Shown in pieces: positions 58,501-61,500 of a DNA stretch of 64,000 nucleotides; position 1 is the stretch's first letter; the number at the start of each line of letters is the position of its first letter. Source of the stretch: Escherichia coli (GTDB lineage Bacteria; Pseudomonadota; Gammaproteobacteria; Enterobacterales; Enterobacteriaceae). The stretch is taken from NCBI RefSeq assembly GCF_024298765.1, contig NZ_CP101210.1. One strand, given 5' to 3'. Position numbers: made by a program.

Positions 58501-61500
58501 TTGCAGCAGTGTACTCTTTCGTACAGCCAGAATGTGGCTGACTGAGGTTGAGCAGATAACGTCCGTATGCCCGTTGACCACTTCCGGACGGGAGAGTGTG
58601 ATTGCAGACATAATCGATATTCCTTTTCGCAGATAAACGAAAACGCCAGCCCTGTTCAGGCTGGCGTCAGGGTAATGAAGCGTGGTGAGTGATATTCACC
58701 GGTTCTGGTGCAGAAGCTGCAGATGACGCAGGGTACGGACATCCTCTCTGGCCTGTTCGATACAGGGCAACAGTGCTGCCGAATCCGTTCTATCCTCATC
58801 GTTGTCAAAGATAATTCCCGATTCGCAGTCGATATTGTCCTGTAGCCACGCAATCAGAATATCCAGTGCGGTTTCCGTGGTTAATGATTTCATGTTGTTC
58901 CTGGTTACCAGTCGAAAGTGGGCAGGTCCGGCAGACATTCAGCGCTGGCATCCAGATGAATGAGACTGACGCCATAACGTTGGATGAGTGTGACAACCAG
59001 ACGACGGAACGTTTTTGACAGCCCCAGGCGCTTGAGCCGCAGAACCGGATATGACCACGCATCGGTACGTAACAGATATCCGCTACCTGTGAAATGAATC
59101 CATTCTGATTCACCGAAGTCACTGGTCTGGTGTGACAGCGAGTACAGCCAGGCGTTATCCTTTTCCGTGATATGTGCGGTACTGCAGCGTATGCCGGCAA
59201 GGGTTGCAAACGGTGGTAGTGTGCAGGTTGACTGTTGGTCGGATTCCTCCACCACGCGGAGTGAATAACCGTTTTCAGCGACTTTGTTAATCAGTTCAGC
59301 GAGCTCAATACTATCGACGTCAACGACAATGCGCCCCATGTTCAGCGCCTGCGCATTAATGCTGTCGGCTTCCAGCGTCAGGGCCAGTTGCATCGTTTCG
59401 CCCCCGGATGTTTACCCAGGGTAATGTTATTTACCGTTCTGTAGTTGTCGCGTGTCATCAGGCCGGTTGCCCGGCGTGCCCGGAGGATATCAATACTGTT
59501 TATTAACTGAGAACGGGTACAGGCGCTGAATCCCGGCTGGTCGGTACGTACCAGTGCGTATTTTTCAACGAGAAAGTTCACCGCATCGCACAGTGAAATG
59601 CCTGCCTCAATATGCTGCTCAATCACACGTTCATCAGCGAACGGTGTGTCATTCAGCGTAAGGCCGTAATGCTGGTCCAGCAGTCGGGTGAGCAGTGTCT
59701 GCCAGATTTCAACCGGAGACGGGCGTGAACTGGCCGCCTGCCCGGGTAATACAGGTAATGTTTTCATACTGAAGATTTTCCTGATATGCAGAGATGAAAA
59801 ATGGAAAAGTGGCGTGGTGAAAGCACCAGGCCGGAGCAGAAGGTTATTCTGGAGAGTTACTTTTTCGTTTCGGGCGTCGGATAAACAGCCATATAAACGT
59901 AGCCACAACTGCCGAGGGTGTCGGCTTCGCAGGTCAGCCCTTTTGCATACAGCGTGACGGTATGCTGATGGCGGGAATTCAGTTCACCGCTGGTGAGCAT
60001 GAGTTCCAGTTGTTTCATCAGCAGCGGAAAGGCCTGGTCCAGGTGGTACGAATCCGCGTCGCTGAACCGGCCTCTGATACCGGCGCGGTCGGCAAGGTAA
60101 TGCAACCGGTTGCCCTCCTGCACCAGACGGGCGCCGAAACAGGGCGTCACGGTGCAGGGTAGTCCCCACCAGGGACGGTCATGATTGTCATCGGGATGCG
60201 TTGTCCCGGAGAGTGTGTCTGACACGATAAAATCCTCACAGAAAATCGGTGAATGATAGTTTAACGATGACGAGTCAGCCGGCGCGCAGACCGGCTTCGG
60301 TGAAGGTGTATTCGTTGATGAGTAGGGCCTCATCCACAGCGGCGTCTGAGGTCAGCCAGTCGTACTCGTTTTCCAGTTGACGGTACAACCAGAAGGCCAG
60401 GTCGCGCAGGGCTTCACTGACTGCGGCTTCCGCATCGGCTGTCATAGCCTGACCAGTCGGACTGTTCCTGGTAACTGTGATATCCATGCTGTACGGATGG
60501 CAGTAACGTCCCCGGTGACTGATTTCAGCCTGTAATTGCCAGAAGTTACGTTTCTGCACCGCCTGCAGGGCATCCGCGATACGATGGAGTTCATGCTCCT
60601 GTGGGGCATACTTCCGGATTCTTCTGACTGTCGCTGGCTGCCAGTGCCAGCGTCCTTCAAAACAGGCTCCGTCCCCCTGGCTGCAGAATCCGCTGAACCA
60701 GATGCTCGGCTCTTCCATAAACCTGCCGTTGCTGAGCCGGAAAACGCGCTGGCGGAGGTCAATTCCGAAAATGCCACAGACCTCCCTGAAGTCTTCATAC
60801 ACGTTTTCATACCAGTTGCTGTCAGCATGATGCTGACGGTACCCGTCGCGGGCTTTTTCCTGTGCCGGGCAGGAAAGCTCATCCAGCGTATACACGGTGG
60901 TGGTGATAATTCTGCTCATCAGAATGCCCTGATTCAGTTCAGTGTGACGCTCATCAGCCGGACATACGGGCCAAAACTGTCCTTACGACGTTCAGCAAAC
61001 ACGGCCAGCACACCGGGAATATCCTGCACTTCACGACCGGTATACGCTTCAGTGCTGCCGTGCCAGCGGTACTTACCGGTACAGAACGGAAAAAGACGGG
61101 ATGCAGGATGCTGACGGTGAATACGCATGGCTTCACCACGGGTGATGATTTTCATAATGGGATACCTCTGAAGACAGAAGATAAAAGTGAAAACAGGTGT
61201 GATGTGGTTGTGGCGGTGACGGGTTAAAGCAGGCCGTGTTCCGCAAAGGAGAAAACCTGGCTGCCACCGACTATCAGATGGTCCGGCACCCGGATATCCA
61301 CCAGGCCCAGTGCCTGTACCAGACGTTCCGTGATAAGCCGGTCAGCCTTACTGGGGGTGACTTCACCGGACGGGTGGTTGTGTGCCAGCACCACGGCAGC
61401 GGCATTGTGGTACAGGGCACGTTTAATCACTTCCCGGGGATGGACTTCCGTGCGGTTGATGGTGCCGGTGAAGAGGGTTTCACCGGCAATCAGCTGATTC

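Follow-up and report, generated by a model that had tools for sequence, protein, structure and literature searches.

A conserved gene of the phrog_5162/DUF8835 family beside CbtA/CbeA in Escherichia coli islands is probably not dedicated to this toxin–antitoxin pair

In the leading regions of plasmids anti-defence, toxin–antitoxin and SSB genes are found clustered (Samuel et al. 2024, PMC11541004). Anti-defence genes of such leading-region or early-entry type, known from plasmids and phages, comprise ArdA, ArdB/KlcA, ArdC, PsiB, SSB and Ocr-type representatives (PMC11541004). Two further described systems have to be considered for the locus presented here, namely the polyvalent-protein domains (Iyer et al. 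2017, PMC5512222) and the CbeA/YeeU antitoxins (PF06154). We compare with them a gene, designated X, that lies in a 64,000-nucleotide stretch of DNA from Escherichia coli (the window; contig NZ_CP101210.1 of assembly GCF_024298765.1).

With the leading-region genes X shares its neighbourhood (antirestriction PF03230, ArdC, SSB, RadC and DUF932), its presence both on conjugative elements and within the terminal repeats of phages and the character of its product, which is small, acidic and stand-alone. It differs from them in lacking sequence or fold similarity to any, and this holds for ArdA, ArdB/KlcA, ArdC and the other known antirestriction families. The polyvalent-protein domains occupy the same niche, with ArdC-N, RadC, ParB-like, toprim, YAcAr and CbtA neighbours, and show the same distribution over phages and conjugative elements, but X matches none of the LPD and polyvalent-protein models contained in the Pfam library searched, and its best 150 relatives are all single-domain proteins. 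To the CbeA/YeeU antitoxins it is linked by direct adjacency, probable co-transcription, the public name “antitoxin” and rare fusions; unlike them it has no PF06154 domain, is twice the size, adopts another predicted fold and shows a distribution largely independent of CbtA/CbeA.

The gene had been noticed in a sequence-only reading of the window, and ORF calling recovered all that was reported there of its 214 codons, its position on the same strand as its neighbours, the gaps of 14 and 49 nucleotides and the quoted peptide stretches. The upstream DUF987 (yeeT-like) ORF stops 14 nt before the ATG of X, and the CbeA/YeeU-family gene starts 49 nt past its stop codon. In a genome that matches this segment at 100% identity the annotated order is DUF932, antirestriction, JAB/RadC, DUF987, X, YeeU antitoxin and CbtA. 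The following features define the locus, with their basis in brackets:

63390..63416, minus strand: strong terminator-like hairpin behind an Ag43-type autotransporter gene (consensus scan)
62291..63109, minus strand: DUF932 gene, the module's first cistron (ORF; annotation; related loci)
61715..62200, minus strand: antirestriction gene, PF03230, ArdB/KlcA-type (annotation of the identical genome; PF03230 on equivalents in related loci)
61224..61700, minus strand: RadC-like JAB-domain gene, YeeS/YfjY-like (NCBIfam TIGR00608, 149.7 bits, over the cut-off; annotation)
60934..61155, minus strand: DUF987 (YeeT-like) gene (ORF; PF06174 on homologues; annotation of the identical genome)
60275..60919, minus strand: X, the gene under study (ATG-started ORF, 214 aa)
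59857..60225, minus strand: CbeA/YeeU-family type IV antitoxin gene with GTG start at 60225 (annotation; PF06154 on equivalents)
59378..59767, minus strand: CbtA-family toxin gene, product starting MKTLPVL (annotation; PF06755 on equivalents)
58905..59393, minus strand: DUF5983 (YeeW-like) gene overlapping the end of cbtA (ORF; annotation)
58696..58893, minus strand: DUF957 gene (ORF; annotation)
57763..58611, minus strand: DUF4942 gene, last gene of the module, after a terminator-like hairpin at 58642-58668 (ORF; annotation)
56315..57670, plus strand: gene for a tyrosine recombinase/integrase, at the island border (ORF; annotation)

Between 63109 and 58700 a consensus scan of the minus strand found no comparable terminator and no promoter match, a result consistent with one long transcript that would include X. 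A single-stranded DNA promoter of the leading-region type upstream of the DUF932 gene was rejected, since the hairpin located there, folded as ssDNA, does not exceed shuffled sequence in stability (z -0.08).

X is a real and conserved gene rather than a chance ORF, because its homologues fill 2536 clusters at 90% identity and 3788 clusters at 50% identity and because dN/dS values of 0.13-0.21 indicate purifying selection. Judged by its profile match to phrog_5162 (E 5.7e-36, residues 2-210 aligned to profile positions 2-195 of 201) it is an ordinary member of a large, catalogued and uncharacterised family, phrog_5162 or DUF8835, which has no assigned function. Nearly all members are stand-alone and 200-220 aa long; the proteins are acidic, with a median pI of 4.8 across the family and 5.4 for X. 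The earlier statement that no family could be assigned agrees with our searches as far as characterised families and solved structures are concerned. Pfam yielded no match for X even at E<=10 and none for 66 homologues (in a copy without a DUF8835 model), NCBIfam gave none for X, the PADLOC defence-protein models returned 0 families at E<=1, and sequence and profile searches against the PDB revealed no relative.

In RefSeq X goes under “hypothetical protein” or “antitoxin of toxin-antitoxin stability system”, and a single one of the listed records reads DUF8835. A further public name, “antitoxin of the YeeV-YeeU toxin-antitoxin system”, implies an accessory role in that system. Neither Pfam nor NCBIfam detects a Phd/YefM/RelB-type antitoxin domain in X, and its classification as a Phd/RelB-type antitoxin was rejected for this reason. 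Domain searches give no support to the public name “antitoxin of toxin-antitoxin stability system”, which is unfit for counting antitoxins. In the literature nothing was found on DUF8835, phrog_5162, four WP accessions or the annotation names of X, and the phrase “toxin-antitoxin stability system” refers to other proteins in the papers that use it. The label “RNA polymerase binding protein” on one homologue from an Acinetobacter phage was discounted because neighbouring annotations in that record look unreliable.

The AlphaFold2 model of X reaches a pLDDT of 95.8 and, compared with solved structures, presents a predicted fold without known relatives. Two conserved motifs stand out:

60653..60697, minus strand: codons 75-89 of X (FSGFCSQGDGACFEG), where conservation within the family is strongest, with the motif F-S-G-F-x-S-Q-G-D-G-A-x-F-E-G (67 homologues)
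60497..60505, minus strand: codons 139-141 of X (Y-C-H), the second conserved polar motif, Y-x-H (homologue alignment)

The residues G77, F78, Q81, G82, D83, G84, A85, F87 and G89 of the first motif show at least 90% conservation across the 67 homologues, and in the model this segment forms the loop joining two β-strands, which makes it a candidate ligand-binding or active-site loop. In the second one at least 90% of the sequences share Y139, and 65 of the 67 have H141; this motif sits in the loop after strand 129-135. The conserved loops, Y-x-H included, may well have a functional role. The description of the protein as rich in Cys and His is correct for the allele in the window but does not extend to the family, since among 67 diverse homologues C17 is found in 2, C79 in 13, C140 in 15, C48 in 27 and C86 in 44, and only H141 (near-invariant) and less so H112 (53/67) are conserved. 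A zinc-binding Cys/His protein was rejected because the cysteine ligands are not conserved.

Beyond E. coli, copies of X with approximately 60% identity occur in alphaproteobacterial conjugative plasmids and ICEs, where the neighbours encode ArdC, DUF2958, ParB-like, SSB, DUF932, RadC, strawberry-notch helicase, toprim, relaxase and T4CP proteins. Among 112 plasmid records with a match, 41 were typed as conjugative. Over 80 species-level loci the conserved neighbours are strawberry notch (66), ParB-like (56), toprim (41) and ArdC (34). Most alphaproteobacterial loci contain, directly upstream of X and with an 8-nt start/stop overlap, a conserved 138-aa gene whose product belongs to no Pfam or PHROG family. 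A weak BLASTP match (E 0.033) had raised the idea that it is a long version of DUF987/YeeT, in which case DUF987 and X would form a universal pair, but profile–profile comparison rejects this (hhalign probability 0.3%). Homologues are present also in 78 phage records, and those of jumbo phages are more distant than the alphaproteobacterial copies. In Caulobacter jumbo phages, as checked in CcrBL9, the homologue lies within the terminal repeats. For some jumbo phages of Klebsiella and E. coli a repeat annotation, or the presence of two copies in a record, hints at such a location too.

It is, in our opinion, somewhat probable that X serves mobile elements as a stand-alone accessory protein, acting as an establishment, counter-defence or host-manipulation factor and not obligatory to the CbtA/CbeA pair. 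In enterobacterial CP4-like islands it is one cistron of the long, probably co-transcribed series DUF932 - antirestriction - RadC - DUF987 - X - CbeA - CbtA - DUF5983 - DUF957. Its product would presumably be expressed early upon entry, act alone in the cytoplasm of the newly entered cell and serve establishment, counter-defence or host manipulation, and it may bind or enzymatically neutralise a host component conserved across Proteobacteria through the S-Q-G-D-G and Y-x-H loops. If this is true, X adds a widespread and structurally new family, with thousands of clusters in Proteobacteria and phages, to the barrier-evading proteins of plasmids, islands and phages. A more far-reaching version, which we put forward tentatively and with considerable doubt, is that X founds a new class of early-entry effectors, whose fold lacks a solved relative, common to conjugative plasmids, ICEs, islands and the terminal repeats of jumbo phages, and neutralising a conserved defence or host function via an S-Q-G-D-G / Y-x-H pocket; in a rarer variant it would have been recruited in Enterobacteriaceae to act with CbeA on the cytoskeleton-targeting pair.

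X might instead belong, together with its neighbours, to the DNA-processing and replication-establishment machinery of conjugative elements (in alphaproteobacteria with the 138-aa partner, the ParB-like protein, the strawberry-notch helicase and the toprim primase, in enterics with RadC and DUF932) and have no part in counter-defence. Such a role would fit its conserved position between ParB-like and strawberry-notch/toprim genes in 56-66 of the 80 loci, the overlap with the 138-aa gene and the fact that DUF932, RadC and SSB accompany it in alpha- and gammaproteobacterial elements alike. We nevertheless hold it for unlikely: the E. coli module and the phage contexts examined contain no partner, helicase or toprim genes, the 138-aa partner bears no relation to DUF987, no nucleic-acid-binding or nuclease signature was seen in X, its family is acidic, and islands without X retain the remaining module.

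Within Enterobacteriaceae X always flanks the gene for CbeA, on either side. In E. coli it immediately precedes cbeA, in Klebsiella michiganensis and Salmonella diarizonae it is found between cbeA and cbtA, and in a rough NJ tree all enterobacterial sequences form one clade that is found entirely in this module. Of 5426 complete E. coli genomes 1942 contain at least 80% of X, and approximately 1800 of these share the arrangement of the window. Natural in-frame X-CbeA fusions of 342-343 aa are rare and are found also in a complete genome; an AlphaFold2 prediction of X linked to CbeA by the natural fusion linker (pTM 0.59) gave no confident interface, with a poorly modelled CbeA half (pLDDT 45-64). 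Apart from this prediction, these observations could point to an enterobacterial accessory of the type IV CbtA/CbeA pair, i.e. a modulator, a second antitoxin or a co-factor of CbeA on the cytoskeleton, and an extra component of this kind, or else an anti-defence factor, was what the sequence-only reading had proposed.

The wider survey argues against such an accessory. CbtA/CbeA were undetected in 79 of the 80 species-level loci, the exception being a single Salmonella locus, and they are absent from the alphaproteobacterial plasmids, from lytic phages and from the vicinity of every phage homologue examined. The “antitoxin” names of X derive from context, and Pfam detects neither PF06154 nor any antitoxin domain. 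As had been claimed, the gene is missing from all three K-12 modules checked, and the K-12 pairs CbtA/CbeA, YkfI/YafW and YpjF/YfjZ, all without X, are described in the literature as functional toxin–antitoxin pairs. In CP4-44 of K-12 the spacer between yeeT and cbeA consists of the RBS, the ATG and the first 8 codons of X fused to the last approximately 35 nt upstream of cbeA, and a scar of this type is present in 3461 of the 5426 genomes. A second and independent scar is seen in another type of module that retains just the final 113 nt of X. These scars establish that X was deleted at least twice with the CbtA/CbeA pair left intact. As read from the spacer, X is ancestral in the lineage leading to K-12 CP4-44 and was later deleted. 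The earlier designation as an additional ORF is thus true in comparison with the present K-12 modules but not in evolutionary terms, because CP4-44 still keeps the scar.

An extra toxin–antitoxin component is therefore unsupported, because most relatives of X occur without CbtA/CbeA, because the pair persists without X in thousands of E. coli genomes and because X is a common member of the module that already bears RefSeq names, with no unrelated function known. Of the functions proposed earlier an anti-defence role stays plausible. X is independent of the pair, is best read as not being obligatory to CbtA/CbeA and probably does not serve it as a dedicated component; an accessory function restricted to Enterobacteriaceae appears quite improbable. 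The least probable case is a growth-modulating, toxin-like host-takeover effector restrained by the product of the adjacent gene (the 138-aa partner in alphaproteobacteria, CbeA in enterics), for although the overlapping small-gene/large-gene cassette of alphaproteobacteria resembles the layout of a toxin–antitoxin operon, X adjoins and is sometimes fused with CbeA, has been lost repeatedly with the antitoxin gene kept and lies in early regions of phages, where host shut-off proteins are common, it stands in many phage contexts alone with no recognisable partner, matches no toxin family in Pfam or PADLOC, and owes this interpretation wholly to gene layout.

For work on the toxin–antitoxin module these results mean that the CP4-44 operon of K-12, which usually serves as reference for CbtA/CbeA, is a deletion derivative with the start of X still in its yeeT-cbeA spacer, and that Nissle 1917 and similar strains, which carry X intact, are better models of the full module. 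The copy in Nissle 1917 shows 94% DNA identity and is annotated as DUF8835, and a protein identical to X of the window is already present on 257 contigs in public collections.

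The 214-aa gene X is closely packed with its neighbours on the minus strand of the window:

60275..60919, - strand, X (ATG start, 214 aa, from the ORF listing)
60934..61155, - strand, DUF987/YeeT-like gene, its stop 14 nt upstream of X
59857..60225, - strand, CbeA/YeeU-family gene (GTG start), 49 nt downstream of X
59378..59767, - strand, CbtA gene, next after the CbeA gene

The ORF, both gaps and the peptide stretches quoted in the sequence-only reading were all found in the window. This segment is 100% identical in a pig E. coli genome, whose annotation gives the order DUF932, antirestriction protein, JAB (RadC-like), DUF987, "hypothetical protein" (X), YeeU-family antitoxin and CbtA. 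A consensus scan of the minus strand detected strong terminator-like hairpins nowhere but ahead of the DUF932 gene and behind the DUF957 gene, with no promoter-like site in the stretch that they enclose. This pattern fits the module, X included, being read as one long transcript, as had been proposed, but is no proof of it. Besides the terminator behind the Ag43-type gene (63390-63416), the minus strand carries at 63152-63175, ~40 nt upstream from where the DUF932 gene starts, a GC-rich hairpin of 10 bp with a T-run after it; folding this region as ssDNA gave no greater stability than shuffled sequence did (z -0.08). The DUF5983 gene, intact in the window (58905-59393), is split by ISEc12, an IS21-family element, in strain 13P460A (L096:7527-10601), which is otherwise identical to the window across the 2.5-kb segment compared.

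X is a real, conserved, common and already annotated gene. Among 5426 complete E. coli genomes, 1942 contain at least 80% of it at the DNA level, ~1800 of them in the window's own 2.5-kb arrangement, and the exact protein occurs on 257 contigs in public collections. Comparison with another E. coli allele gave X a dN/dS of 0.21, and comparison with the copies from Klebsiella and Salmonella gave 0.13-0.19; the values for its neighbour genes are 0.07-0.27. RefSeq labels it "hypothetical protein" or "antitoxin of toxin-antitoxin stability system" and, in Nissle 1917, "DUF8835 domain-containing" protein, while some UniProt entries read "Antitoxin of the YeeV-YeeU toxin-antitoxin system"; these antitoxin names come from genomic context.

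In line with the earlier statement that no family can be assigned, X found no match in Pfam, NCBIfam, PADLOC or PDB sequences; the one family that it matches, from end to end, is phrog_5162, whose function is unknown. It is an ordinary member of an already known, catalogued family without assigned function (phrog_5162; DUF8835 in recent RefSeq annotation), on which no paper was found in the literature searched. Membership in the CbeA/YeeU family, the Phd/RelB-type antitoxins, known antirestriction families or PADLOC defence families was rejected, there being no NCBIfam, Pfam or PADLOC match. A HMMER search of 1.84 billion representatives yielded 3788 clusters at 50% identity (E<=0.001), and among the best 150 of these almost all are stand-alone proteins of 200-220 aa. 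One 60%-identical copy resides in a 969-aa "DUF4326 domain-containing protein" attributed to the chytrid fungus Blyttiomyces helicus (AFDB A0A4P9WST2), which probably stems from contaminating bacterial DNA or from a wrongly joined gene model in that eukaryotic assembly.

Conservation was scored across 67 aligned homologues that share 37-67% identity with the query. The Cys/His pattern pointed out earlier in X is no family feature, as its cysteines are kept in only 2 (C17), 13 (C79), 15 (C140), 27 (C48) and 44 (C86) of the 67; H112 is kept in 53 and H141 in 65. Typical conserved positions are E14-L15, I114 and L118, Y139-x-H141 and W177-x-Y179, together with the loop motif F-S-G-F-x-S-Q-G-D-G-A-x-F-E-G (residues 75-89) and the C-terminal N-E-Y-x-F-x-x-x-G. 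The family as a whole is acidic, with a median pI of 4.8 and a median net charge of -16; for X of the window the values are 5.4 and -8. AlphaFold2 gave a confident alpha/beta model from the 67-sequence alignment (mean pLDDT 95.8, pTM 0.88), in which S-Q-G-D-G falls in a predicted loop that links strand 73-75 to strand 85-87, and Y-x-H in one that follows strand 129-135. Foldseek with this model found nothing in the PDB (best E 0.09, TM below 0.3) and only family members in AFDB50.

Newly recognised here is the main home of this family, alphaproteobacterial conjugative elements and phage terminal repeats. In a one-genome-per-species collection 546 stretches encode a relative; 79 of the best 80 are alphaproteobacterial (57-63% identical) and one is from Salmonella diarizonae. 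Searched by tblastn with the module proteins of the window, CbtA, CbeA, DUF987 and DUF932 were found among these 80 only in the Salmonella locus, and RadC in 14 loci. De novo clustering of the neighbour genes revealed a constant setting: ArdC (34 loci), a ParB-like protein of 712 aa (56), the X homologue, a strawberry-notch helicase of 1445 aa (66), a toprim protein (41) and a YAcAr/DUF2493 protein (30). Directly upstream of X, most alphaproteobacterial loci encode a 138-aa protein (MADYFTHFSC...; MADYFTHFSCLLDVGT...GGGAHVLDL...), whose stop overlaps the start of the X homologue by 8 nt:

L012:8592-9008, 138-aa partner gene
L011:8589-9008, 138-aa partner gene
L003:7592-8008, 138-aa partner gene

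This partner could be placed in neither a Pfam nor a PHROG family, and it shows no relation to DUF987. A second, unrelated protein type (MPIFIIETTF...) stands in for it in a few loci (L071, L073, L086). Annotated examples agree with the species-level scan: in Tistrella a relaxase and T4CP adjoin the X homologue, Sphingobium pCHQ1 is a conjugative plasmid carrying one, a Tabrizicola plasmid has SSB, DUF932 and two RadC genes upstream, and Pleomorphomonas is a further case. X homologues occur in 112 plasmid records, 41 of them typed conjugative, and in 78 phage records at 25-38% identity. Gp032 of Caulobacter phage CcrBL9 (L095:5001-5657) lies inside the 22-kb terminal repeat, amid blocks of small hypothetical genes, and such a position in a long direct terminal repeat means two copies per genome. 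For further jumbo phages of Caulobacter, Klebsiella and E. coli, an annotated repeat or a record with two copies hints at the same location; the homologues of the remaining phages examined sit within blocks of small, early-type hypothetical genes.

The best-supported reading sees X as a mobile-element accessory gene that is autonomous. An establishment or anti-defence type of gene is suggested by its company on conjugative elements, namely antirestriction, RadC, DUF932, ArdC, ParB-like and SSB genes, and by its place in the terminal repeat, a region that enters the cell first, in no fewer than one phage, the Caulobacter phage examined. Plasmid leading regions are rich in genes for anti-defence, toxin-antitoxin and SSB proteins (PMC11541004). 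X would act alone inside the newly entered cell, probably through its conserved polar loops, and its target would be a conserved host component. A less likely alternative is that X and its neighbours jointly serve DNA processing or establishment.

The enterobacterial copies form one clade with an E. coli branch and a Salmonella/Klebsiella/Citrobacter branch (rough NJ tree without support values). New here are two gene orders around cbeA, a natural fusion with CbeA and K-12-type deletion scars:

L005:7610-8996 (Klebsiella michiganensis), CbeA-X-CbtA arrangement
L044:9624-11065 (Salmonella diarizonae), CbeA-X-CbtA arrangement
L093/L094:3001-4032 (E. coli, including complete genome CP138416.1), X-CbeA fusion, 343 aa
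E. coli K-12 MG1655 2077039-2077111 (L010:3040-3112), yeeT-cbeA spacer scar, ATGAGCAGAATTATCGCCACTACCG
L008:2501-2613 (E. coli MRE162) and L009:2501-2613 (E. coli E2855), second scar

In E. coli the order is DUF987-X-CbeA-CbtA; in K. michiganensis and S. diarizonae it is DUF987-CbeA-X-CbtA, X splitting the antitoxin/toxin pair with 13 nt before and 33 nt after it in L005 and similarly short gaps (tens of nt) in L044. Hence X always touches cbeA. In some E. coli both are fused in frame (342-343 aa; junction ...GLRAG-LPEDFIV-SDKLHE... in the 343-aa protein) through a short deletion that took the stop of X together with the larger part of the spacer. Modelled with AlphaFold2 via this natural linker (pTM 0.59), the X half was confident and the CbeA half poor (pLDDT 45-64), and the model lends an interface no support.

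The three K-12 modules indeed lack X, with gaps of 73 (yeeT-cbeA), 18 (ykfH-yafW) and 37 nt (ypjJ-yfjZ). The 73-nt CP4-44 spacer reads ...TGA GTGGGAATTCTG ATGAGCAGAATTATCGCCACTACCG..., then the last ~35 nt before cbeA; it holds the RBS, ATG and first eight codons (MSRIIATT) of X fused to the 3' spacer, ~630 nt being gone. Of the 5426 complete E. coli genomes, 3461 match a probe of this junction as a single unbroken piece. In the second type (O157-like strains, MRE162) the final 113 nt of X (...LYRQLENEYD...RAG*), which carry no annotation, come straight after the DUF987 stop and are themselves followed by cbeA; in ~740 genomes such partial matches are the best. As the two remnants do not overlap, at least two independent deletions from an X-carrying ancestor are implied. 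Judged from these scars, K-12 CP4-44 is the derived state and X is ancestral to the CP4-44-type module, not an insertion into an otherwise conserved one as had been assumed. The CP4-6 and CP4-57 modules show no visible X scar and no room for X.

The constant contact with cbeA in two gene orders and the natural fusions are the best argument that X is functionally linked to the toxin-antitoxin pair in enterics. More weight falls on the independence of the family at large from the CbtA/CbeA pair and on the repeated loss of X with the pair retained; the proposed role as an extra toxin-antitoxin component is therefore unlikely. That X is a toxin-like effector held in check by the adjacent gene, a place taken by cbeA in enterobacteria and by the 138-aa partner in most alphaproteobacterial loci, is very unlikely.

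A paralogue of the module's RadC-like gene, K-12 yfjY, now lfgB (L101:87-569), is annotated as "CP4-57 prophage protease" LfgB. LfgB was reported to cleave the antitoxin MqsA (PMC10846083), which suggests that toxin-antitoxin proteins of the host may be targets of those module genes that lie upstream of the pair.
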